DNA from: a phage
DNA length: 64,000 nucleotides
Direction: 5' to 3' (one strand)
Assembly (NCBI GenBank): GCA_022520065.1
Contig: GCA_022520065.1_3942.1
Made by a program: the position numbers and the translations under genes. Positions 16,916-62,923 of the stretch are shown one piece after another. Numbering within the stretch: position 1 is the first letter of the stretch; each line of letters begins with the position of its first letter. The notes under the pieces were generated by a model that was given only the letters and a program-made list of their open reading frames with translations, did not search any database and was not told where the DNA came from.

Positions 16916-24934
<8,019 letters not shown>

Positions 24935-26119: not shown

Positions 26120-26140
26120 GGGGCTTTATAGCCCCTTTTA
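26120..26140 (+). terminator. Rho-independent terminator after first tail fiber gene
   Basis: Hairpin ggggc-tttata-gcccc followed by tttt. Confidence 0.55.
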
Positions 26141-44248: not shown

Positions 44249-45295
44249 ATGGAGAAGTACACATTAAAAAAACTTCCCGATTCAGTTACACATGTCTTTA
44301 TTGACTCTGACAGTATTGCCTATAAAGGTGCTTGTGTAGTTGAGAAAGCAAAATATAAATATGTCAATAAACTCACAGCAGAAGAATCTGAATCATTTGA
44401 TAATGCAAAAGATGCTGCAAGATGGTTAGCAGACCAGAGAATCCTTGTAGAAGAGCTTGGCCTAGCATTTGATGAAGATGAATGGGAAAGACAGACTTGG
44501 AAAGAAGCTAAGAGTGAAAAAGAAGCTATCATGGCTACTCAGCAGGTTCTTCAGGAATGGCTTAAGGTTGTTGGTAAAGAAAGAACTTGGGTAGGTTATT
44601 TAACAGAGAAGGGTGTACATAAACATAAAGACATTAAAGGTCTTGAGCACCAATATCAAGGTAACCGTAAAGAGGCTGTCACACCAACACACTTAGTTGC
44701 TTGTCGTGAATATCTTTTATCCAGACCAGAGTTCAAGCTTTTAAAGGGTGGCTTCGAAGCTGATTCAATTGTAATTGCTAAAGCTGAAAAGATGGGTAAG
44801 AAAGCTGCTCTTATGAGTATTGACAAAGACCTTCGACAAGCTGAAGGAACTTATTGTATTGATATGACTTATGAAAAATCACCACTAATTTTTATTGCTG
44901 ATAATAATGTTGGTGATATCTGGGATTGTCCTATCAAATCAAAACCAAAAGCTGCAAAAACAGTTGGTGTAGGTTTTAAATTCTTGTGTTATCAGGCTGT
45001 TGCTGGAGATAATGCAGACAACTACTTCGGCCTAAAAGGTGCTGGTAAAGTAGCTGTGATGAATGCTTTAGAGGGTAAAGAGACCTATAAAGAGTGTCTT
45101 GATGCTATCTATGAACTCTATGCTAAAAAAGAGTCTTACACCTATGTGTCATGGGATGGACAGACTGTTACAAAGACACCGTTAGAGTTAATGGAACAGC
45201 ATTTCTTCCTAGCTTATCAAGAGCGAAATAAATCAGATATTTTTTCATTTGAAAAGTATGGTTGGACTCCAAATGTTGACTCAGCAGATACTTAA
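44249..45295 (+). CDS. 5'-3' exonuclease (T7 gp6-like, probable)
   Basis: Resemblance to T7 gene 6 exonuclease regions (SIDKD, AVAGDNADNYFGLKGAG). Confidence 0.55.
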   Translation: MEKYTLKKLPDSVTHVFIDSDSIAYKGACVVEKAKYKYVNKLTAEESESFDNAKDAARWLADQRILVEELGLAFDEDEWERQTWKEAKSEKEAIMATQQVLQEWLKVVGKERTWVGYLTEKGVHKHKDIKGLEHQYQGNRKEAVTPTHLVACREYLLSRPEFKLLKGGFEADSIVIAKAEKMGKKAALMSIDKDLRQAEGTYCIDMTYEKSPLIFIADNNVGDIWDCPIKSKPKAAKTVGVGFKFLCYQAVAGDNADNYFGLKGAGKVAVMNALEGKETYKECLDAIYELYAKKESYTYVSWDGQTVTKTPLELMEQHFFLAYQERNKSDIFSFEKYGWTPNVDSADT

Positions 45296-45773
45296 AGAAT
45301 ATCTACACTATGACCCCGAAACAGGGGTCTTTACGTGGATAAAGAAATCAGCTAACAGAACAGTTATAGGTTCCATTGCAGGTACACCACATAAGCGAGG
45401 TTATATTAGGATAAAAATTAAAAGAAAACCCTATATGGCTCATGATTTAGCAATCCTGTACACAGATGGTTTCCTACCTAACAGAGTAGACCATCGCAAC
45501 GGCATTACTAATGATAATCGGAGATTAAATCTAAGGGTTTGCACACAAGCTGAAAACTCTTGGAATAGAAGAACACACTCCAACAACACATCTGGAGTTA
45601 AGGGTGTATCTTTCTATAAGGCTAACCAAAAATGGAAGGCCAGAGTTATGACACACGGAGTATCTCACTTTCTGGGGTATTTTGACAGTATTGAAGATGC
45701 CAAAGATGCAGTCACAAAGAAAAGAGAAGAACTACATAAAGAGTTTTCAAATCACGGAGAAGCTTATGAATGA
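45273..45773 (+). CDS. HNH homing endonuclease with AP2-like DNA-binding domain
   Basis: HNH core VDHRNGITNDNRRLNLRVCTQAENSWN and YKANQKWKAR AP2-like segment; start uncertain (45258 or 45273). Confidence 0.65.
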   Translation: MLTQQILKEYLHYDPETGVFTWIKKSANRTVIGSIAGTPHKRGYIRIKIKRKPYMAHDLAILYTDGFLPNRVDHRNGITNDNRRLNLRVCTQAENSWNRRTHSNNTSGVKGVSFYKANQKWKARVMTHGVSHFLGYFDSIEDAKDAVTKKREELHKEFSNHGEAYE

Positions 45774-47908: not shown

Positions 47909-47930
47909 GAGCCTCTTCGGAGGCTCTTTT
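47909..47930 (+). terminator. Rho-independent terminator
   Basis: Hairpin gagcctc-ttcg-gaggctc followed by tttt. Confidence 0.65.
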
Positions 47931-52013: not shown

Positions 52014-52036
52014 AGGGTCTCTTCGGAGACCTTTTT
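52014..52036 (+). terminator. Rho-independent terminator before nrdD
   Basis: Hairpin gggtctc-ttcg-gagacct followed by ttttt. Confidence 0.6.
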
Positions 52037-52055: not shown

Positions 52056-54200
52056 ATGAACAAAGTACAGATTATTAAAAAGAATGGCTCACTTGAAGAA
52101 CCTGATATCAAAAAAGTTTTAGCAGCAGTAACTAAGTCAGCTAACAGAGTTGGTTATAAAGAGCTTCCACCAGATGTTACTCAAGCTCTTGAGTCAGCAT
52201 TTATGAGGATTCTGGTAAAGTCCACTAAACAGAATAATTTGCTAATTTCTGTAAATGATATTCACAGTATTGTTGAGGGTGCTTTGGCAGAAGTCAATCA
52301 CGAGATTTATGAGTCTTACTCAACATATAGAAATTACCGTAAAGAAGTTGCTCAAAATTGGGATGAGCTTTACCAGAAGACCAAAGATACACTCTTCTTA
52401 GGTGACCGAGAAAACGCTAATTTTGACAGCAGTTTAATTTCTACAAAAGGTTCAATTATTCGTGGTTATCTGACTAAAGAAATCTTTAAACAGTACCACT
52501 TAACACCAGAGGAACTTGAAGCCATTGAAAAAGGGTTTATCTATATCCATGATTTAAGAGACCTAATTTTTGGTGGTATCAACTGTTGCCTGTTTGACAT
52601 TGGTAAAGTCCTGAAAGGTGGCTTTGAAATGTCTGGCATCGAATATTGTGAACCGAAGTCTGTACTGTCAGCCTTACAGGTTATTGGTGATGTAGTTCTT
52701 TCAGCAACTGCACAGCAATTTGGTGGCTTTACTTTAGCAGAGATTGATAAGGTACTCATACCGTATGCTAAGAAGTCTCTACGCTATCATGCTGAGAAAG
52801 CAGCATCTTATGGTATTCCTAAAGAACATTACCACAATTATGTCATGGAGCAGCTACAGATTGAACTGACTCAAGGTTTCCAGTCACTTGAAATGAAACT
52901 AAACACTGTACCTTGTAGTCGTGGGGATTTTGCATTTACAACTTTAACATTTGGGTTGCTCGACTCAGATATGTCTAATGAAGACAACCGACTACAATAC
53001 ATGATTGCAAGTACTCTCCTAGATGTTCGTATGAATGGACAAGGTAAGAGCAAGAAGCCTGTTGTATTCCCTAAACTGGTTTATATTTATGACCAGAAGA
53101 GACACGATGAGAATATCTGTCAAGGACACCTGTACAGTAAAGCTATAGAGTGTTGCTCTAAAGCGATGTATCCAGATTTCTTAAGTGTATCTGGTCATGG
53201 TGCTGTAGCAGAAGCTTTTGAGCGTTCTGGCAAGGTTATTTCGCCGATGGGTTGCCGAGCGTTCTTATCTCCGTATCTTAACGAGAATGGGGAAGAGTTC
53301 TACGTTGGTCGTGCTAACATTGGTGCTGTATCTTTGAACTTACCAATGATTTACCAGTATTCTAAAGAGAACGGTTTAGATTTCTGGAAAGAGCTTGATA
53401 AGTACCTAGAAATGATTCGCAGCTTCCACAAGAAACGTTACGAAATGATTGCTAATATGCCAGCAAGTTCTAACCCTCTTGCATTTACACAAGGTGGTCT
53501 GTATAAAGGAACTAAGAAGCCTACTGACAGGGTTGGCTGGGATATTGTGAAGTCCTTCACAGCTTCTTTTGGGGTTACTGCGCTTGATGAGTTATCTGTT
53601 CTTGCTGAAGGTAAACGACTTCATGAAGTTGGAAGCTATAGTTTTGCATACGATGTTCTGGCGTACATCAACATGAAAACTGAAGAGTTTAAAAATGAAG
53701 ATGGTTTCTTATATGCAGTCTATGGCACTCCAGCAGAATCACTATGTGGGACTCAGCTAAAACAGTTCAGAGATATGTTTGGGGTTATCAAAGGTGTTTC
53801 CGATAAGGAATACTTTACAAACAGTTTCCATATGAATGTTGTAGCAGACATCTCACCATTTGAGAAGCAGGACTTAGAAGAGCCATTCTTCCATATCTGT
53901 AGAGGCGGTAGAATCCAGTATGTAAGAGTAGCTAACCCAGAAAACTTATCAGCACTTAAAAGTTGTATTACTAGAGGGATGTTGAAGGGTTTTTATCAGG
54001 GACTTAACTTTGACTTAGCAATCTGTGAGCATTGTGGTAACAGACCAAAGGCTGATGTTGAAGAATGTGAGGTTTGCCATTCACATGACATCTCTGTGAT
54101 TAACAGGGTGTGTGGTTATCTTGGATGGACTAAGATTAAAGGTGAATCACGAATGAATGATGCAAAAATCGCTGAGATTCGTGACAGAGTTTCTATGTAA
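52056..54200 (+). CDS. nrdD: anaerobic ribonucleotide reductase (class III)
   Basis: C-terminal glycyl-radical motif RVCGYLG and zinc ribbon CEHCG ... CEVCH. Confidence 0.9.
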   Translation: MNKVQIIKKNGSLEEPDIKKVLAAVTKSANRVGYKELPPDVTQALESAFMRILVKSTKQNNLLISVNDIHSIVEGALAEVNHEIYESYSTYRNYRKEVAQNWDELYQKTKDTLFLGDRENANFDSSLISTKGSIIRGYLTKEIFKQYHLTPEELEAIEKGFIYIHDLRDLIFGGINCCLFDIGKVLKGGFEMSGIEYCEPKSVLSALQVIGDVVLSATAQQFGGFTLAEIDKVLIPYAKKSLRYHAEKAASYGIPKEHYHNYVMEQLQIELTQGFQSLEMKLNTVPCSRGDFAFTTLTFGLLDSDMSNEDNRLQYMIASTLLDVRMNGQGKSKKPVVFPKLVYIYDQKRHDENICQGHLYSKAIECCSKAMYPDFLSVSGHGAVAEAFERSGKVISPMGCRAFLSPYLNENGEEFYVGRANIGAVSLNLPMIYQYSKENGLDFWKELDKYLEMIRSFHKKRYEMIANMPASSNPLAFTQGGLYKGTKKPTDRVGWDIVKSFTASFGVTALDELSVLAEGKRLHEVGSYSFAYDVLAYINMKTEEFKNEDGFLYAVYGTPAESLCGTQLKQFRDMFGVIKGVSDKEYFTNSFHMNVVADISPFEKQDLEEPFFHICRGGRIQYVRVANPENLSALKSCITRGMLKGFYQGLNFDLAICEHCGNRPKADVEECEVCHSHDISVINRVCGYLGWTKIKGESRMNDAKIAEIRDRVSM

Positions 54201-55833: not shown

Positions 55834-56100
55834 ATGGGAATTTTAGGTAATATGAAAGTTGGATTCTTGAAGGCACTGGAAAAAGCAGCAGCAATTGTTT
55901 CTATGACTGGAAAGCAGGTCGGTGTAGATGCTTCAGCGGTTGCACAGGTTCTTGCAAGCCAAATTGAACAGCAGCCTTACATCTACGTAGGACGTGGTAA
56001 AGGTGGTAAGAAACAAGCCCACCGCCAATCTGGTGCAGCAGCTATTAAACGAGCAGCTAAGAAAGCTCGTAACCGTAAACGTAACAAGAAGGTTAAATAA
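55834..56100 (+). CDS. hypothetical small basic protein
   Basis: 88 aa, C-terminus KRAAKKARNRKRNKKVK. Confidence 0.4.
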   Translation: MGILGNMKVGFLKALEKAAAIVSMTGKQVGVDASAVAQVLASQIEQQPYIYVGRGKGGKKQAHRQSGAAAIKRAAKKARNRKRNKKVK

Positions 56101-56102
56101 CC

Positions 56103-56423
56103 ATGAGCAAAGTTTATAACACTCGTAAATTACAGATTTTCGTACTGTGCCAGTTTATGGCTAAAGAATACAACTTCTACTATTGTGGTACAGGTTTTAT
56201 TAGCGATGATGATGGCTCATACCTCCCATTCAAAGAGGCTGTAAAACTCTTCAATGAAGAGAAAAGTTCTAAGAAAGATATTGAAAAGGTTAAGCTAACC
56301 TACAGCAAGAAAGATAAGAAGATTATCTGCCTAGATAACTTTGTGAAAGTTACTGGAGAAGCAAAAGAGTTTATGGATGAGAGTGAGATTTCATTCACAA
56401 GCATCTTGAAAGTAGCTCAGTAA
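56103..56423 (+). CDS. hypothetical protein
   Basis: 106-aa ORF followed by terminator. Confidence 0.4.
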   Translation: MSKVYNTRKLQIFVLCQFMAKEYNFYYCGTGFISDDDGSYLPFKEAVKLFNEEKSSKKDIEKVKLTYSKKDKKIICLDNFVKVTGEAKEFMDESEISFTSILKVAQ

Positions 56424-56474
56424 ACAGATACTATAAGGGGACTGTAAAGGTTCCCTTTTTATTTTGGAGGTAAA

Positions 56475-56990
56475 ATGTATCTGTCAAACCTGAAACGTTC
56501 GGTTGCAATGTCAGTTCTAAGACTCAGCTTTGATGAGCGTCAAGAGTTTATAGACTCCCACAAATATGACCCTTCAAATTCTAATCACATGGTTCTTTGG
56601 AATCGTGATAACTTCCGTGAAAGAGCACTTGTCCGTTATTACCCACACTACACAATAGATAACCTGTATGAATGGTGTGTTGTGAAGAACACCATTGCAA
56701 CACTGAACAATCTTTGCAGGTATACGGGTAAGCAAACATTTACATTAGGTCATCACAAACCTGTTACAAAAGGTGGTGAACATCACTGTGCAAACTGGTT
56801 TATCCAAACTAAAGCTGATAACCAGAAGCAAGGAGATAGCCTCCTAAGTATCCCTAAGATGACCTATGAAGAGCAAGAGAAATATATCAAAAATAATATG
56901 CCAGATGTGCTTGACAACAACTATACAGATTTGGCAATATCTCTCCTGTTGAAGTTCGAGACAGTTTATAGGGCAACTTATAATGGCTAA
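56475..56990 (+). CDS. HNH endonuclease-like protein (putative)
   Basis: GHHKPVTKGGEHHCANWFIQTKADNQKQG resembles an HNH motif. Confidence 0.45.
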   Translation: MYLSNLKRSVAMSVLRLSFDERQEFIDSHKYDPSNSNHMVLWNRDNFRERALVRYYPHYTIDNLYEWCVVKNTIATLNNLCRYTGKQTFTLGHHKPVTKGGEHHCANWFIQTKADNQKQGDSLLSIPKMTYEEQEKYIKNNMPDVLDNNYTDLAISLLLKFETVYRATYNG

Positions 56991-57261
56991 AGAAAAGTGG
57001 GAGATTTTACCATTAGTCAGTGAAGGAGGTAATGGTTGTGAAATGTACATGATACGTGGTCATGTTCCAGAGCCAATTGCACTTGAGATGGTAAACAACT
57101 TTACAGATGGTTCTTACAAAGACTTAGGCGAACCAACTGTCAAGCAACAATGGGTTAAACCTGTACCAGACAGCACAGGTAACTGTAGTGTACTTTATCA
57201 CGTTGTAGACCCTGCAAAATGCAAATCTGCAATGGCAGTAACAAACGTAACTTTTGATTGA
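56983..57261 (+). CDS. hypothetical protein
   Basis: 92-aa ORF. Confidence 0.4.
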   Translation: MAKEKWEILPLVSEGGNGCEMYMIRGHVPEPIALEMVNNFTDGSYKDLGEPTVKQQWVKPVPDSTGNCSVLYHVVDPAKCKSAMAVTNVTFD

Positions 57262-57272
57262 GAGAGAAAACT

Positions 57273-58154
57273 ATGAAAACATCTATCCGTGTTACAGTTC
57301 ATTCACCAACTAAAGGAACTCATGAAGAAGAGTTTAACATCATCCAATTTCCTTCTGGTGAGATTGGTGGACACTTTTCGCCAGAGTTTGTTGATTTCAC
57401 TGCTTATGCAGCATCATCCATCAACAATGTGATTATGATTGTAAAAGGTTATGATAAGGACACTTTGTTTGCTGTGGCACTTGCTAAAGAAGCAATTGAT
57501 GATTTAATTCCTCATGATTATGCTTTAAAGACTGTCATCTTTTACTACTTACCAAATGCACGTTATGACCGTCACATGTTTAAAGGCGACGCAGCAGCTT
57601 TAAAGGTTTTTGCTAAACAGATTAATGCAATGGGATTTGGCGCAGTCTGTGCAGTTGACCCTCACAGCTATGTACCAGATAACCTGTTTAACTGCTTCCA
57701 GAGTATTCCTCAAAAGGAAATTGCAGTCCACTATGCAAATGACCCACTGATTGATTACTTAGTAGCCCCAGATGCAGGTGCTGCTAAGAAGATTGCAGAG
57801 ACTGCTAAAGAGGTGGATAAACCATACATCACAATGTCTAAAGTGCGTAACCTTAAGACTGGTGAAATTACTGGTATGCGAATCCTTGATGATGTTGATT
57901 TGACAGATAAAACCGTCATGATTCTGGATGACATCTGTGATGGTGGTCGAACCTTCATAGAAGCAGCTAAGCATCTTCGTGAAGCAGGTGCAAAACGTGT
58001 GGAACTCTATGTAACACATGGTATCTTCTCTAAAGATGTTGAAAACCTTCTTGACAATGGCATTGACCACATCTACACTACAAACTCTTTAGGGGAAGCT
58101 AAAGACCGTGGCTTAACACATTATAGCCAAGTTACTGTAGCAAACCTTGATTAA
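57273..58154 (+). CDS. ribose-phosphate pyrophosphokinase (PRPP synthetase)-like protein; candidate ADP-ribose pyrophosphokinase (Adps)
   Basis: Phosphoribosyltransferase PRPP-binding motif VMILDDICDGGRT; about 294 aa; directly upstream of NAMPT-like gene; start set to ATG 57273. Confidence 0.7.
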   Translation: MKTSIRVTVHSPTKGTHEEEFNIIQFPSGEIGGHFSPEFVDFTAYAASSINNVIMIVKGYDKDTLFAVALAKEAIDDLIPHDYALKTVIFYYLPNARYDRHMFKGDAAALKVFAKQINAMGFGAVCAVDPHSYVPDNLFNCFQSIPQKEIAVHYANDPLIDYLVAPDAGAAKKIAETAKEVDKPYITMSKVRNLKTGEITGMRILDDVDLTDKTVMILDDICDGGRTFIEAAKHLREAGAKRVELYVTHGIFSKDVENLLDNGIDHIYTTNSLGEAKDRGLTHYSQVTVANLD

Positions 58155-58163
58155 AACTTTATA

Positions 58164-58184
58164 GGGGCTTAAAAGCCCCATTTT
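58164..58184 (+). terminator. Rho-independent terminator between the Prs-like and NAMPT-like genes
   Basis: Hairpin ggggc-ttaaaa-gcccc followed by a-tttt. Confidence 0.5.
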
Positions 58185-58199
58185 GAGAGAGATTAAAAG

Positions 58200-59981
58200 A
58201 TGACTAAATCACTTTATGCAGTACCAGCAGGTTTAAATGCAGATGCTTACAAATCTGGTCATGTTTACCAGTATCCTAGTGCAACAGAATATTTGATGTT
58301 CAACCTGACACCACGTAGCGACAAATGGTTTAACAGTCCATTAGCAATTGATGGTGTAGTCGCTTTTGGTATTCAACGTTTTGTTAAAGATTACTTGATA
58401 GACCACTGGAATGCTACGTTCTTTGAACGTGACAAAAAAGAAGCAATTGACGAAATCTTAGAAGTCATGAATGGTGTTCTGGGCAAAGATGCTATCGGTC
58501 GAGAGCATTGGGAAGCACTTCACGACTTAGGTTATCTACCAGTTGAAGTATACGCTGTAGAAGAAGGCACAGTTGTCCCTATGCGTGTTCCGATGATTGT
58601 TTTCCAGAACACTGTTTCAGGTTTCCATTGGGTAGCAGGTTATCTGGAAGATGCTTTCTCTGCTGAGATTTGGAAGGCTTGTACCATTGCAACTATTGCA
58701 TTGCACTACAAACGTATCTGTAAGAAGTGGGCTGACCTTACTTGTGACAACGACTTGCATTTGCCTTATCAGTGCCATGACTTTGCTATGCGTGGTATGT
58801 CCGGCTTTACTGATGACGCATTTAACGCTGTAGGCCACTTAACCAGCTTTAAAGGAACTGATAGCTTCCCTGCTGTGTATACGGCTAAACGAATCTATGG
58901 ACAGTCCTACCCAATCTCTGATATTGGTAGCTCTGTACCAGCCACTGAGCACTCTGTAATGTGTGCAAACATTGCTTGGGAAGGTGGTAATGAGTTGATT
59001 GAAGAAGAAAGACGCTTTAAAGGTGAGTTACAAACCTTCCGTCGTTTCTTAACAGAAACTTACCCAACTGGTATTGCAAGTATTGTTTCAGATACTTATA
59101 ACTTCTGGAGAACTGTGTCAGAAATCTTACCAGCACTCCGTAAAGAAATTATGGAACGTGACGGTAAACTGGTAATTCGTCCTGACTCTGGAGACCCTGT
59201 ACATATTGTCACAGGGTACAAAGCAATCCATTTAGAGTGTGCTAAAAAGTCTTATTACGAACACTTAAGCAAGCTTGAAGCCAGCGACACAATGTTGAAT
59301 GCTGTTCTGAACATGAAGCTTGAAAACATCAATTATGGTATTGCTGGATGGCTACTGTCAGAAGGCTACGAAATGGTTGTTGACAGAGAAGACTTTGAAG
59401 TTGCTGATACAGTGCTGTTGAAAAACGCATATATGGTTGGTTCTGCAAACGTTGTAACACGTCCTGTAGCAGAGATTGATGGAGCTATTAAGACCTTGTA
59501 TAACATCTTTGGAGGAACTATCAACTCTAAAGGTTTTAAGGTACTGGATGAACATATCGGCCTTATCTATGGTGACTCTATCACGTTGGAACGTGCAAAC
59601 GAAATCCTGAAGCGTCTGTATGAAATGGGGTTTGCAAGCTCTAACGTGGTGTTTGGTGTAGGCTCTTACACTTACCAGTACATGACTCGTGACACCTTTG
59701 CATTTGCTGTCAAAGCAACTCTTGCAAGCATTGGTGGCAAAGAGATTATGCTTGCAAAAGACCCTAAAACAGATAGTGGTGTTAAGAAATCTGCCTTTGG
59801 TGGTGTAGCGCCTATGTGGGATGGTGATAAGTTGAAAGCTGTAGATGGCTACGGATTCCAGAGTTTTGCAGATGTACTTGACCACCCAGCTTGTGCTTTA
59901 CGTTTAGTCTTTAGTGACTCTGAGCAGTTTGGTTACACAACTCTTGGTGATATTCGAAATAATATTGACAAGCAGCTTTAA
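58200..59981 (+). CDS. nadV: nicotinamide phosphoribosyltransferase-like protein (NadV/NAMPT family; candidate Namat)
   Basis: 593 aa; N-terminus NADAYKSGHVYQYP matches the NAMPT DSYK(V/S)xHxxQYP region. Confidence 0.75.
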   Translation: MTKSLYAVPAGLNADAYKSGHVYQYPSATEYLMFNLTPRSDKWFNSPLAIDGVVAFGIQRFVKDYLIDHWNATFFERDKKEAIDEILEVMNGVLGKDAIGREHWEALHDLGYLPVEVYAVEEGTVVPMRVPMIVFQNTVSGFHWVAGYLEDAFSAEIWKACTIATIALHYKRICKKWADLTCDNDLHLPYQCHDFAMRGMSGFTDDAFNAVGHLTSFKGTDSFPAVYTAKRIYGQSYPISDIGSSVPATEHSVMCANIAWEGGNELIEEERRFKGELQTFRRFLTETYPTGIASIVSDTYNFWRTVSEILPALRKEIMERDGKLVIRPDSGDPVHIVTGYKAIHLECAKKSYYEHLSKLEASDTMLNAVLNMKLENINYGIAGWLLSEGYEMVVDREDFEVADTVLLKNAYMVGSANVVTRPVAEIDGAIKTLYNIFGGTINSKGFKVLDEHIGLIYGDSITLERANEILKRLYEMGFASSNVVFGVGSYTYQYMTRDTFAFAVKATLASIGGKEIMLAKDPKTDSGVKKSAFGGVAPMWDGDKLKAVDGYGFQSFADVLDHPACALRLVFSDSEQFGYTTLGDIRNNIDKQL

Positions 59982-59995
59982 AAGTATATGATAAG

Positions 59996-60018
59996 AGGCT
60001 CCTACGGGAGCCTTTTTA
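59996..60018 (+). terminator. Rho-independent terminator after NAMPT-like gene
   Basis: Hairpin aggctcc-tacg-ggagcct followed by ttttt. Confidence 0.65.
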
Positions 60019-60034
60019 ATTTCTGGAGAAAACT

Positions 60035-60370
60035 ATGAAAATCAAAGAGATGAACATCAACATTGTCTTAGAAGAACGTTGGGAGAACATCAATAAGCCT
60101 GAAGATGGCCATAAGTTTCTTAACAAAATTTTAGTAGCAGCTAAAGAAGAACTGACTGGCAAGGTCGCAGCAGCAATTACAATAAAGGTCTGCGTAAAAG
60201 GTCTTCCAGACAATCACCAATTTGCGCTTGACGAGTTTAAAAAAAGCTTCTACAATCCAAACAAACAGATACTTGAAAGTAACTTTGCAGTATCTACAAG
60301 TATCGTCCATGACAGAAGCTTTATCCTTTACAAGAATATGAGAGGTGAGTCATGCAAGCATATTGGATAG
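60035..60370 (+). CDS. hypothetical protein
   Basis: 111-aa ORF. Confidence 0.4.
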   Translation: MKIKEMNINIVLEERWENINKPEDGHKFLNKILVAAKEELTGKVAAAITIKVCVKGLPDNHQFALDEFKKSFYNPNKQILESNFAVSTSIVHDRSFILYKNMRGESCKHIG

Positions 60371-60528
60371 AAATTTTACTGTCACTTGGTAGTGTAGCAG
60401 TATTTGTTTACCTCCTTTGTAAGTACTTTGCAGAGCACAAAAAATGTGACTACTGTAATGGAGAGGGGTACATAAGGGCAGGATGTTGCCCTATGTGTGG
60501 TGGTTCTGGTAAAATGTTTAACAAGTAA
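60352..60528 (+). CDS. hypothetical small membrane-anchored zinc-ribbon protein (58 aa)
   Basis: Short ORF read manually: hydrophobic N-terminus then CDYCNGEG ... CPMCGGSG. Confidence 0.35.
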   Translation: MQAYWIEILLSLGSVAVFVYLLCKYFAEHKKCDYCNGEGYIRAGCCPMCGGSGKMFNK

Positions 60529-60556
60529 TTTAACAGTAAACTAAGAGGAAAGTATT

Positions 60557-62923
60557 ATGCGCATGGTAAACGACCACGCAGAAGTGATTAAGAGTTCAAC
60601 TTCTTTAGAGACGTCTCAAGCACAGATTACAATGACACCTGAAATGTTCAGCCTTTTGAGTTCTGGTGTATATACCTTTAAAGAAAGGGCAGTGATTCGT
60701 GAACTGTCATGTAACGCAGTAGATGCTCAGAAAGAGGCTGGAAAAGAGAACATCCCGTTCCATGTGCATTTACCTACTCGTTTTGAGCCTTACTTTGAAG
60801 TTCGTGATTTTGGAACTGGATTGACTCATGATAAAGTTATGAGTTTGTACCTAAACTATGGGGCTTCTACGAAGAATGACTCTAATGACTACATTGGTGC
60901 AATGGGTATCGGCTCAAAATCACCATTTGCAATTGCTCAGTCATTCACAGTGTCTAGCTATGTTGACGGTGTTGTTAATAAGTACTCTGTTTATCTTGAG
61001 AATGGTATCCCTCAAGTAACTAAGCTGACCACTAACCCAACAAAAGAACCTAATGGTTTAGCTGTACGTGTGGCAGTTGCTGACCACCGTATTTCAAAGT
61101 TCTTTGAAGAGGCTGGTAATGTATACTCATACTTTGCTGTAAAACCAGAGAGTAATGTGGAGTATAATGATATATTAGCAGATATGGATGTGATTGCTCG
61201 TGAAGAAGGTGTCTATGATGCCATGACTCATAAGCATAGCTGGCGTTCAAGCAGCAATAGAACAGAGTTTAACGTGGTTATGGGTAATATTGCCTACCCA
61301 GTTAATATGGAGGCATTACTTGGTGATGATTTCTTCAAAGTATTACCAGAATTTTTCCGCAGGAGCATAGACCTTGTAAACATCTACATGCCTATTGGTT
61401 CAGTTGCTATTGCAGCTTCTCGTGAAGCATTGCAGATGAATGACACGACAAAAAATGTTATCATCGAGGCTACTAAAAAGATAACTGAAGCAATTACAAA
61501 GGATGTTATCAAGAAAGTTAATAGTCAACCTACACTCATGGATGCTGCACAGGCTTATGCTGAGTTACGCTTGAACTCACGAGAGATGTTTAATGTTGTG
61601 TGTCCAAAGCTAGAGTGGGGAGGTGTTAAGCTTGATTCTCTGGAAGAAGAATTACTAAACATTCGTCGTGGAATTATCTACGCAGAAGACGGCTCAGTCA
61701 TTTACGAACGTGACGGTAAAGGTAATATTAAGGTTGATAGGAACGGGAACAATATCCCTAAAGTAGATTATCTTTATGACCCAGTTGCTTATGTCAAGTT
61801 CAACTCTTTAGAGAGTAAGATTCGTGCAACATCGCTTTCCTACACTCAAGAGGCAAGTATGTTCAATATCTTTGGCGCAATGCGTAAAAGCCAAATTGAA
61901 CAGTTTTTGTTTGTTATAAATGACCGTCGCAATAAAAACGGTACTGAGAAGACTGTAGGACGCAATCAAATCTTGCGTGGTGCATGTCGAGACTATGCCA
62001 GTGAGTCGAACCTGTTTCACAGATACAATGGTATTGTCTTTGTATTCTCGACTGAAAAAGAGCTAGATGACTTAATCAATCTACACAAACTTGATAAAAG
62101 CTTGTTAAAGATTGTGAAGATGTCTGATAAGGAACACCATTATCAGCGTAAAGAAGCTGTAAGAGGTGTTGTAAAACTCTGGAAAGCTGTTCCAGCAGAA
62201 GGTGTAGCTTCCTATAAAGAGGTTTCAGAGGACTTTGATACAATTGAAGAGCCTCAACTTTATATCAAGGCAGTAGGCGACACTGTTGATGGCGAATGTT
62301 TTTGCTCATCTCCAGAAGATGTAGCTAAGTCAGTTGCCAATGTCATTGGGAAGACAGTCTATGTTTTCCGAAAAGCAAATTGGAAAAAGATACCAGAAGA
62401 CTGGATTGAAGTAGATGAGAAACTCTTGAACGACAGTTTAACTGATGTTCATTGGATTAATCATAACAGGTATATGACACGTATCTATATGAATGGTGTC
62501 CTTGACCTTACAAGCAGTTGGATTATTGCCAGAAACTTTACGTTCAATAACAGGAAGATTTCTCGTGGCTATTGTTATTCACGGGATACAAACAAAACTA
62601 TCTTCTTAGAAGGTAATGAAGATGCTGTAGAGGCAATGTTTGGTAAAATCCAATACGTTGCTGCACCGTTTGCATATACTTACACTATTAGTAGGTTGCA
62701 AACTTTGAAAGACTGCCTTGACAATGATACAAAGCTGTACAAGAAAATTAAGAAAGCTGGTGACCGCATGGTCATTAAGGTGACAAACTACCTTTCAAAA
62801 AGAAAACAAGAAAACTTCTTGCTTTCTCATTTAGATTGGAATAAAGTGTCACCCATCGAAGTGAGTAAGTTCTTAGGCTTTGATGTGAAGTGTGTTCCAG
62901 AAGGGACTACAATTTACGATTAA
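60557..62923 (+). CDS. rIIA: rIIA-like protein with N-terminal GHKL-type ATPase domain
   Basis: Bergerat-fold motifs RELSCNAVDA, VRDFGTGL, GAMGIGSKSPFA; 788 aa; assignment to rIIA is from memory of T4 rIIA. Confidence 0.55.
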   Translation: MRMVNDHAEVIKSSTSLETSQAQITMTPEMFSLLSSGVYTFKERAVIRELSCNAVDAQKEAGKENIPFHVHLPTRFEPYFEVRDFGTGLTHDKVMSLYLNYGASTKNDSNDYIGAMGIGSKSPFAIAQSFTVSSYVDGVVNKYSVYLENGIPQVTKLTTNPTKEPNGLAVRVAVADHRISKFFEEAGNVYSYFAVKPESNVEYNDILADMDVIAREEGVYDAMTHKHSWRSSSNRTEFNVVMGNIAYPVNMEALLGDDFFKVLPEFFRRSIDLVNIYMPIGSVAIAASREALQMNDTTKNVIIEATKKITEAITKDVIKKVNSQPTLMDAAQAYAELRLNSREMFNVVCPKLEWGGVKLDSLEEELLNIRRGIIYAEDGSVIYERDGKGNIKVDRNGNNIPKVDYLYDPVAYVKFNSLESKIRATSLSYTQEASMFNIFGAMRKSQIEQFLFVINDRRNKNGTEKTVGRNQILRGACRDYASESNLFHRYNGIVFVFSTEKELDDLINLHKLDKSLLKIVKMSDKEHHYQRKEAVRGVVKLWKAVPAEGVASYKEVSEDFDTIEEPQLYIKAVGDTVDGECFCSSPEDVAKSVANVIGKTVYVFRKANWKKIPEDWIEVDEKLLNDSLTDVHWINHNRYMTRIYMNGVLDLTSSWIIARNFTFNNRKISRGYCYSRDTNKTIFLEGNEDAVEAMFGKIQYVAAPFAYTYTISRLQTLKDCLDNDTKLYKKIKKAGDRMVIKVTNYLSKRKQENFLLSHLDWNKVSPIEVSKFLGFDVKCVPEGTTIYD

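Follow-up and report, generated by a model that had tools for sequence, protein, structure and literature searches.

A two-gene locus of a Felixounavirus that very probably encodes the NARP1 pathway of NAD+ resynthesis

The stretch of phage DNA analysed here (64,000 nucleotides, referred to below as the window) contains a pair of co-directional + strand genes that very probably constitutes the minimal two-gene NARP1 operon of Felixounavirus. The first, adps (57273..58154; 293 aa, PRPP-synthetase-like, ATG start), would encode an ADP-ribose pyrophosphokinase (ADPR-PP synthetase), and the second, namat (58200..59981; 593 aa, NAMPT-like, ATG start), a nicotinamide ADP-ribose transferase; according to the list of open reading frames and the sequence itself, the gap between them is 45 nt. 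What the present analysis contributes to this assignment is orthology to characterised genes, retention of catalytic and specificity residues, and fold, while the chemistry and the anti-defence phenotype would be those described in published work on Bas63, SPbetaL1 and ICP1, and the allele pair of the window probably behaves as the published pairs do. On that model Adps would convert ADPR and ATP to ADPR-PP and AMP, and nicotinamide would then displace the pyrophosphate of ADPR-PP, under the action of Namat, to give NAD+ directly; neither NMN nor the host salvage enzymes would be needed.

NARP1 was discovered in phage Bas63 (JohannRWettstein) using a combination of deletion and metabolomics (Osterman et al. 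2024, bioRxiv 10.1101/2024.02.11.579819), and the first-pass annotation of the window had described this work accurately as a 2024 study of Adps and Namat. Bas63 without genes 79-80 was sensitised to SIR2-HerA and caused deeper NAD+ depletion, ADPR-PP was seen only with wild-type phage in defence-carrying cells, and the host genes pncC and nadR were dispensable for the anti-defence effect (bioRxiv 10.1101/2024.02.11.579819). The homologues from SPbetaL1 and ICP1 convert ADPR and ATP to ADPR-PP, and ADPR-PP and nicotinamide to NAD+ (bioRxiv 10.1101/2024.02.11.579819; PMC13586617). SPbetaL1 Adps made no PRPP from ribose-5-phosphate, SPbetaL1 Namat, the one enzyme with a published preference for ADPR-PP over PRPP, made NAD+ only when given both donors, and Namat enzymes keep some activity in vitro for making NMN from PRPP (bioRxiv 10.1101/2024.02.11.579819). 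Since Bas63 Adps purified poorly (bioRxiv 10.1101/2024.02.11.579819), the NARP1 chemistry is here carried over from homologues with 31-46% identity.

The window belongs to Felixounavirus (252 phage records match it, the best at 97%), and its gene order in this region, nrdD, nrdG, four small genes, adps, namat, rIIA, is common to it and Bas63 (MZ501086). The likeness to the Bas63 NARP1 locus extends from genus, neighbours and protein lengths (293 and 593 aa) to the two selectivity-clamp elements of Namat (SCL and SCH, discussed below), an insertion subdomain and the stem of the intergenic hairpin; the differences are that the N-terminal domain of Adps is another allele in Bas63 (~68% identical to the window over codons 4-180) and that one further small gene, bas63_0081, closely follows namat in Bas63 but not in the window. 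As computed, the adps reading frame opens at an upstream TTG (57258), and the ATG at 57273 is preceded by the ribosome-binding-like sequence GAGAGAGA and agrees with the Bas63 annotation. Three minus-strand ORFs inside the pair (57759-58070, 58617-58838 and 59358-59885) gave no family matches and were taken as spurious.

The core Adps+Namat pair is also present in the NARP1-AP loci, which have a Macro-domain Adpp (Vibrio phage Gary), and in the RyDEP loci of mycobacteriophages, from which the window differs in that no further NARP1 gene accompanies the two: the gap is 45 nt, and Pfam and PHROG scans of the four small ORFs upstream and the two downstream found neither a Macro-domain Adpp nor an RyR-domain RyDEP. 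Two of the upstream genes were considered as conserved NARP1 partners. One of these (171 aa) has a counterpart, 51% identical and in the same position, in Erwinia phage Coenus, while the other (92 aa) shows no conservation in that phage; the Coenus match represents subfamily synteny and carries no functional evidence, and both candidates were set aside.

The family matches of the two proteins (PF00156 and PF14572 for the first, PF04095 for the second), together with the ORFs, bear out the first-pass description of a PRPP-synthetase-like gene directly upstream of a 593-aa NAMPT-like gene. They also speak for a different reading, namely that this is classical NAD+ salvage, in which a true PRPP synthetase and a true NAMPT (NadV) would make NMN, to be converted to NAD+ via host NadR/PncC-linked enzymes. 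The Pfam, PHROG and NCBIfam names all agree with such a scheme, as do nearly all of the GenBank annotations compared, and Namat homologues do form NMN from PRPP in vitro if ADPR-PP is absent. However, closer placement of protein 1 argues against it. Its matches to PF00156 (E 1.2e-11), PF14572 (E 4.4e-10) and the subfamily model TIGR01251 (124.8 bits against a cut-off of 113) are above the cut-offs, and it matches phrog_619 with E 1.7e-97, but it falls below every NCBIfam equivalog cut-off for Prs, and by far (e.g. 104.7 against 296 bits). Over its full length it is identical to Bas63 gp79 at 229 of 293 positions (78%), and it is 99.7% identical to a protein of phage HY02 that appears in Osterman Table S1 under ‘Adps homologs’. 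BLASTP bit scores fall from 479 for Bas63 through 166 (Coenus), 116 (ICP1), 100 (SPbetaL1) and 68 (FADO Adps) to 61.6 for E. coli Prs, which is 23% identical to the window protein in the alignment and 29% identical over 195 aligned residues. These bit scores, the equivalog cut-offs and the HY02 listing speak for membership in the clade of phage Adps proteins and against a canonical Prs. In the PDB, the sequence matches of window Adps are all PRPP synthetases (the best being 4TWB, E 2.8e-18), with no solved Adps structure among them; the ICP1 Adps entries are evidently missing from that PDB set. As to genomic neighbourhood, namat starts 45 nt downstream of adps on the same strand, and for 97% of the Adps clade a Namat gene lies in the immediate vicinity (bioRxiv 10.1101/2024.02.11.579819).

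Alignment maps Lys190 (codon 57840..57842, + strand) onto the catalytic Lys of Adps, which is K162 in SPbetaL1 and K185 in ICP1, and the mutations K162A and K185A abolished activity in the respective enzymes (bioRxiv 10.1101/2024.02.11.579819; PMC13586617). ICP1 Adps, from a Vibrio phage (PMC13586617), is 32% identical to the window protein in the alignment (37% over the BLASTP-aligned stretch) and, besides K185, its R87, H121, D161, D212 and D213 are all kept, as acceptor residues R97, H131, D167, D219 and D220; F26, equivalent to ICP1 F18, is also kept. Because most of these residues are retained in genuine Prs as well, their conservation is on its own non-discriminating. ICP1 F92 and F223 are replaced by Met102 and Glu230 respectively, F92 being missing from SPbetaL1 and FADO too. 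The PP loop, DDICDGGRT (residues 219-227; 57927..57953, + strand), which is one of the two motifs quoted in the first-pass annotation, aligns with D212-S220 of ICP1 Adps (DDICDGAAS), so that DDICDG is common to the two and the remainder reads GGRT in one and GAAS in the other; elsewhere the loop is DDLSS(F/Y)GGT (SPbetaL1, DDLSSFGGT, and FADO) or DDMIDTGGT (E. coli Prs). At its C-terminus (...VTVANLD) the window protein falls some 22 residues short of the end of E. coli Prs and lacks the alpha11-alpha12 module, i.e. the C-terminal helices that the E. coli enzyme has, and its alignment with PRPS1 ends at residue 290/318; a PRPS-like fold without alpha11-alpha12 is also what is seen in ICP1 Adps. 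Archaeal class III PRPS likewise lack this module, and its absence is not exclusive to Adps.

Namat is 99% identical to Bas63 gp80 (587 of 593 residues) and matches PF04095 (E 6.5e-35), NF006629 (468.5 bits) and, weakly, PF18127; the second quoted motif, YKSGHVYQYP, is present at residues 17-26. Ranked by sequence, its PDB matches begin with SPbetaL1 Namat (9W5W/9W5X, E ~2e-128), followed by H. ducreyi NadV (2.5e-104) and then by Xanthomonas and mammalian NAMPTs (7.5e-52 to 1e-37). An AF2 model (mean pLDDT 93.5) has Namat chains as its best Foldseek PDB matches and superposes on 9W5X with a TM-score of 0.95, normalised to the target; sequence and fold searches give one and the same order, Namat before bacterial NadV before mammalian NAMPT. 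SPbetaL1 NARP1 (Adps WIT26982, Namat WIT26983; 9W5X/9W5W, PMC12774641) is likewise a two-gene operon with adps upstream, and its catalytic Lys, NAD+-contact residues and SCH motif are kept in the window, although the identities are only 31% for Adps and 46% for Namat. The contact positions of SPbetaL1 Namat are all conserved or conservatively replaced in the window protein (D15, Y17, F195, R198, D221, H251, R327, D329, G458, D459, G488, S489, Y490, Y494, T496, R497 and D498), and seven of them, Y17, F195, R198, D221, H251, R327 and D329, represent the NAMPT-like catalytic core, which comprises a Phe/Tyr pair sandwiching the nicotinamide, a catalytic His, and Asp215, Arg306 and Asp308. Catalytic cores are indeed shared, as are superfamilies, with canonical Prs + NadV/NAMPT pairs (E. 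coli Prs, H. ducreyi NadV 9KE8, human NAMPT) and with KVP40 NARP2.

What distinguishes the window protein from NAMPTs is the adenine clamp that the latter lack. The selectivity-clamp helix (SCH) motif, the published Namat-specific adenine clamp, reads GSYTYQYMTRD (residues 488-498; 59661..59693, + strand), to be compared with GSFTYQYNTRD in SPbetaL1 Namat, GAQTYQRNTRD in H. ducreyi NadV (identified as 9KE8 in the Foldseek table and used as the NAMPT-type control) and GGALLQKVDRD in Xanthomonas (Xcc) Nampt. The window sequence carries the signature and both controls fail it, positions 3 and 7 of the SCH being non-aromatic in NAMPT/NadV; position phi3 is Met in the window and in Bas63, where Asn or Val is usual. 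The selectivity-clamp loop (SCL), TPRSDKWFNS (58308..58337, + strand), is the same as that of Bas63, and includes Lys42 followed by Trp43 where SPbetaL1 has Arg40 as its stacking residue. According to the published rule, the third position of the SCL is occupied by R, K or Y, and with K or Y there it is the fourth residue that stacks on the adenine, Bas63 being the example of the Lys type (PMC12774641); the Lys42-Trp43 pair of the window would be expected to provide adenine stacking in this way. Finally, adps lies directly upstream of namat, and the Namat orthologues of HY02, FelixO1 and wV8, the last of them nearly identical to the window protein, are tagged ‘Adps-associated’ in Osterman Table S2.

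Returning to classical salvage, the results published for Bas63 refute most of that reading, as an operon 99% (Namat) and 78% (Adps) identical to the present one acted independently of pncC/nadR, with ADPR-PP accumulating in vivo; the donor and acceptor preferences of the SPbetaL1 enzymes tell against it too. NARP1 is very probably the correct reading, and we would give Prs+NadV only a very slight chance. The first-pass annotation had stated that the sequence alone could not tell these apart; comparison decides for NARP1, through orthology and synteny with Bas63 79-80 and through the selectivity-clamp motif of Namat. The HMM and structure comparison that it had suggested as a check gave the same answer, with Namat nearest to SPbetaL1 Namat and protein 1 under the Prs equivalog cut-offs.

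Two parts of the proteins are less uniform. Within adps, codons 4-180 (57282..57812, + strand) form a divergent, sharply mosaic block covering the N-terminal domain that is 69% identical to Bas63 in nucleotides and about 67-68% in amino acids, set between an upstream flank that is 95.5% identical and a C-terminal part at 89% (nt) or 95% (aa), with namat at 95.7% (nt); several alleles of this domain occur across Ounavirinae, the FelixO1 form being chimeric. Window Namat has two insertions, both missing from the 491-aa SPbetaL1 protein. The smaller, at about residues 258-272 (58971..59015, + strand), was defined by alignment against SPbetaL1, FADO and ICP1 Namat, and its site varies in length from 7 to 45 aa across Namat homologues. 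The larger is a subdomain of ~90 aa (residues ~340-427; 59217..59480, + strand) following the RPDSGDP strand, which is Ounavirinae-specific, is predicted with confidence to be folded, and has no recognisable relative in sequence or fold.

These features raise the question of whether the locus might encode a functionally shifted variant of NARP1, in which the N-terminal domain of Adps, the insertion subdomain of Namat, or both, would alter acceptor specificity, regulation or partner binding. In its favour are the 68% identity of the Adps N-terminal domain to Bas63 between flanks of about 95%, and the confidently folded insertion confined to one lineage and without a fold relative. However, Bas63, whose 99% identical Namat includes this insertion, shows ordinary NARP1 behaviour, ligand-contacting residues are all kept in both Adps alleles, and the insertion falls at a hot spot of length variation in the family, where a tolerated decoration seems likelier than new chemistry; such a shift seems to us highly improbable. 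It is a somewhat less remote, but still doubtful, proposition that the mosaic domain and the insertion subdomain are not neutral decoration but adaptations of NARP1, whether as an Adps-Namat docking surface that would channel labile ADPR-PP or as surfaces that would diversify against a host factor sensing or inhibiting NARP1; SPbetaL1 Namat, which is without the insertion subdomain, shows no binding to its Adps. There is practically no prospect that the locus is of the NARP2 type, in which NAD+ would be remade via NMN by NAMPT and an NMN adenylyltransferase (Nmnat), from PRPP provided by the Prs-like protein, since, even though window protein 2 and KVP40 Nampt belong to one superfamily, published NARP2 Nampts form a separate clade, occur in phages without Adps and accompany the Nmnat that the pathway needs (no phage having been found with both pathways), while here adps lies 45 nt upstream of namat, the SCH motif is that of a Namat, and Nmnat is absent both from the annotation of Bas63 genes 31-116, with which the greater part of the window is collinear, and from the Pfam and PHROG matches of the small genes flanking the operon.

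Between the two genes of this NARP1 operon lies a + strand stem-loop, GGGGCT-TAAA-AGCCCC (58164-58179), which with its ATTTT tail occupies 58164..58184 and which the first-pass annotation had remarked on as an oddity. The hairpin itself is real (folding energy -14.8 kcal/mol, z = -2.3), although its tail, with only 4 T, does not satisfy the simple rule by which the scan calls terminators. It is, however, no oddity but ordinary for the window, being one of six intergenic hairpins found on the + strand by a perfect-stem scan. Its stem is invariant and its loop variable in Bas63, DE7, Maleficent and Silverhawkium, and it is missing from Erwinia phage Coenus. A role as an operon-specific regulator was considered and rejected, as the stem shows no covariation and similar hairpins occur in five other short gaps, one of them with an identical stem. 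A second, terminator-like hairpin, AAGAGGCTCC-TACG-GGAGCCTTTT followed by TAATTT (59993..60016, + strand), was found by both the terminator and the perfect-stem scans and closes the operon; an Rfam scan of 56000-61000 gave one sub-threshold chance match only, at this terminator after namat.

All this confirms published NARP1 in a Felix-O1-type phage and is conceptually nothing new: the pathway, its discovery in the same genus, the structures and the specificity determinants have all been published already, while the cited NARP1 papers do not deal with the insertion subdomain of Namat or with the mosaic alleles of the N-terminal domain of Adps. Its practical consequence is to relabel genes that are mostly annotated in GenBank as ‘ribose-phosphate pyrophosphokinase’ and ‘nicotinamide phosphoribosyltransferase’. 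The prediction that follows is that this phage is able to evade defences that deplete NAD+ by means of SIR2, TIR or SEFIR; on published logic it would probably still be sensitive to aRES, which produces ADPR-1''-phosphate, because the operon is without the Adpp phosphatase. This may be of use both for annotation and in choosing Felix-O1-like phages for therapy.

The two genes of the module lie co-directionally on the plus strand, each with an ATG start: adps at 57273-58154 (293 aa) and namat at 58200-59981 (593 aa). Together they form a Felixounavirus NARP1 operon, of the same genus as the phage in which the pathway was discovered. The first-pass annotation had described such a two-gene module on the strength of two motifs, both of which are present (DDICDGGRT, residues 219-227 of protein 1; YKSGHVYQYP, residues 17-26 of protein 2), and had held that sequence alone could not decide between classical Prs plus NadV salvage and NARP1, in which an ADPR-PP synthetase (Adps) and a nicotinamide ADPR transferase (Namat) rebuild NAD+. 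The second of these options is borne out by orthology with Escherichia phage JohannRWettstein (Bas63; MZ501086, itself a Felixounavirus), by the clamp residues of Namat, and by the failure of protein 1 against Prs equivalog models.

The 2024 study to which the annotation referred, correctly, is that of Osterman et al. (bioRxiv 10.1101/2024.02.11.579819), who spotted among the BASEL phages the very same operon of a Prs-like and a Nampt-like gene. In their work, deletion of genes 79-80 from Bas63 left the mutant sensitive to SIR2-HerA with deeper NAD+ depletion, host pncC and nadR being dispensable for the effect, and ADPR-PP, a previously undescribed metabolite, was detected only when wild-type Bas63 infected defence-carrying cells; SPbetaL1 Adps converted ADPR and ATP to ADPR-PP without forming PRPP, and SPbetaL1 Namat converted ADPR-PP and nicotinamide to NAD+, preferring ADPR-PP over PRPP. 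The chemistry and phenotype used here are taken from cited papers on homologues or on Bas63, and orthology together with residue conservation suggests that the allele pair in the window would act like the published pairs. On this scheme, NAD+-depleting effectors release ADPR and nicotinamide, Adps would use ATP to pyrophosphorylate the terminal ribose of ADPR, and Namat would substitute nicotinamide for the pyrophosphate, so restoring NAD+. The operon is of the minimal two-gene form; because a domain search found neither a Macro-domain phosphatase (NARP1-AP) nor a RyR-domain protein within or adjoining it, it should, by the published logic, give no protection against aRES, whose product is ADPR-1''-phosphate.

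For protein 2, profile searches give matches to PF04095 and NF006629, and weakly to PF18127. The solved structures closest in sequence are 9W5W/9W5X (E about 2e-128), which the depositors identify as SPbetaL1 Namat, followed by H. ducreyi NadV (2.5e-104), Xanthomonas Nampt (7.5e-52) and mammalian NAMPT (about 1e-40); Foldseek ranks them in the same order (Namat, NadV, Nampt/NAMPT) when given an AlphaFold2 model that drew on 55 homologues (mean pLDDT 93.5), so that the structure comparison proposed in the first-pass annotation places Namat ahead of NadV and NAMPT by both sequence and fold. What sets Namat apart from Nampt is a "selectivity clamp" in which a helix motif and a loop take part (PMC12774641): the third loop residue is R, K or Y, and with K or Y there, as in Bas63, the residue after it stacks. 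In the window protein the helix reads GSYTYQYMTRD and the loop TPR-SDK-W, whereas the aromatic residues of the helix motif are missing from the controls (GAQTYQRNTRD in H. ducreyi NadV, GGALLQKVDRD in Xanthomonas Nampt), and all NAD+-contacting residues of SPbetaL1 Namat are conserved or conservatively replaced. Elsewhere, chromosomal 496-aa homologues (Klebsiella, Cronobacter, Erwinia, Kosakonia and others) annotated as nicotinate phosphoribosyltransferase carry the full Namat helix motif, GS[FY]TYQYNTRD, which fits with reported bacterial NARP1 modules. In the record of Vibrio phage ICP1 (MW794166, 3853-5202) the Namat gene appears as a "hypothetical protein" of 449 aa, which begins past the N-terminal ~55 residues of other Namats and hence lacks the D13/Y15/clamp-loop region; the start may be mis-called. 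Its clamp helix has TCD in place of TRD.

For protein 1 the profile matches are PF00156, PF14572 and, for the PRPP-synthetase subfamily, TIGR01251. In an alignment that also contains E. coli Prs and four characterised Adps (those of Bas63, ICP1, SPbetaL1 and FADO), the catalytic lysine is kept (K190, equivalent to SPbetaL1 K162 and ICP1 K185; PMC13586617), as are F26, R97, H131, D167, D219 and D220, and the DDICDG stretch of the loop also occurs in ICP1 Adps; most of these residues, however, are common to true Prs as well, and for this reason the decisive points are orthology with Bas63 gp79, adjacency to Namat, and the HMM comparison, in which protein 1 scores far too low for any of the Prs "equivalog" models (e.g. 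104.7 bits against a cut-off of 296). BLASTP scores are 479, 116, 100 and 68 bits to the characterised Adps against 61.6 to E. coli Prs. The C-terminus also falls ~22 residues short of that of Prs, and the protein therefore lacks the alpha11-alpha12 module, an absence regarded as a family signature in the Adps structure paper (PMC13586617). On these sequence grounds protein 1 is assigned as Adps.

For the 2.7-kb region, 252 phage records give a match, nearly all Felix-O1-like (Escherichia, Salmonella, Shigella and Citrobacter phages), the closest being Felixounavirus LF82P2 (97%); where the records are annotated, the genes almost always go by "ribose-phosphate pyrophosphokinase" and "nicotinamide/nicotinate phosphoribosyltransferase". 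The Adps of phage HY02 is 99.7% identical to that of the window; this phage is entered together with wV8 and FelixO1 in Table S1 ("Adps homologs") of Osterman et al., and all three are tagged "Adps-associated" in their Table S2. Genes 79 and 80 of Bas63 equal the window genes exactly in length and share their neighbours (nrdD, nrdG and small genes upstream, rIIA downstream). The genomes differ in that Bas63 nrdD is split (a joined CDS) by ~745 bp with the homing endonuclease bas63_0068 (22828-23574 of the Bas63 sequence), whereas window nrdD (52056-54200) is a single uninterrupted 714-aa ORF; Bas63 lacks ~500 bp (45249-45773) encoding a 174-aa HNH_3 homing-endonuclease-like protein with an additional weak AP2 match, and the window lacks the homing endonuclease bas63_0046 and the small gene bas63_0081. 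Two genes upstream of adps, 56475-56990 encodes a phrog_3500 protein (171 aa, function unknown) that is weakly similar to an HNH endonuclease PHROG. Its identically placed counterpart in Erwinia phage Coenus is 51% identical, and the intervening 92-aa gene is not conserved in that phage.

Window Namat is identical to Bas63 gp80 at 587/593 positions, and Adps to gp79 at 229/293. Identity to Bas63 is about 95% in the flanking DNA and in namat, drops exactly at adps codons 4-180 (57282-57812; 69% nt, 67% aa) and then recovers. Ounavirinae have at least three allele types of the Adps N-terminal domain, that of FelixO1 being a chimeric form, next to a conserved C-terminal domain and a conserved Namat; the simplest reading of these alignments is that the mosaic arose by recombination.

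A hairpin at 58164-58184 (plus strand; GGGGCT-TAAA-AGCCCC, then ATTTT) within the 45-nt adps-namat spacer had been called an oddity. The hairpin is real, but a scan of the plus strand across the 64 kb for perfectly paired, GC-rich stems followed by a T-rich tail finds six of the kind (26120-26135, 45312-45329, 47909-47926, 52016-52031, 58164-58179 and 59996-60013). All are at gene junctions, where they occupy a short gap between genes or come soon after the stop codon of the gene before, and the stem at 58164 is identical to that at 26120. Such hairpins are normal punctuation of this genome, with leaky termination or RNA-end protection as their most likely role, and nothing special to the NAD+ module. 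The 6-bp stem is unchanged in Bas63, DE7 and two Moogleviruses, with variable loop and flanks, and is missing from the more distant Coenus. Having just four T past the stem, it fails a simple terminator rule, and a terminator scan places a stronger terminator-like hairpin at the end of the operon (59993-60016).

Felix-O1-type Namat exceeds its SPbetaL1, FADO and bacterial counterparts by ~100 aa. The alignment shows two insertions, the small one around residues 258-272 (58971-59015) and the large one, of ~90 aa, around residues 340-427 (59217-59480), directly after the RPDSGDP strand, both sites being length-variable across the family. The large insertion occurs in only 254 records of the phage collection, by name overwhelmingly Felix-O1-like, and the protein database has homologues of ~590-610 aa, likewise enlarged at both sites, at identities as low as 46%. 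The large insertion is predicted to be a compact alpha/beta unit (pLDDT 93-97 in context, 92.7 alone); searches of Pfam, PDB and BFVD returned no relatives, and the text of the Namat structure paper (PMC12774641) makes no mention of it. The Felixounavirus NARP1 operon was already known, and flagging it was correct and well reasoned; the modest interest that remains lies in this uncharacterised Namat insertion subdomain and in the mosaic N-terminal domain of Adps.
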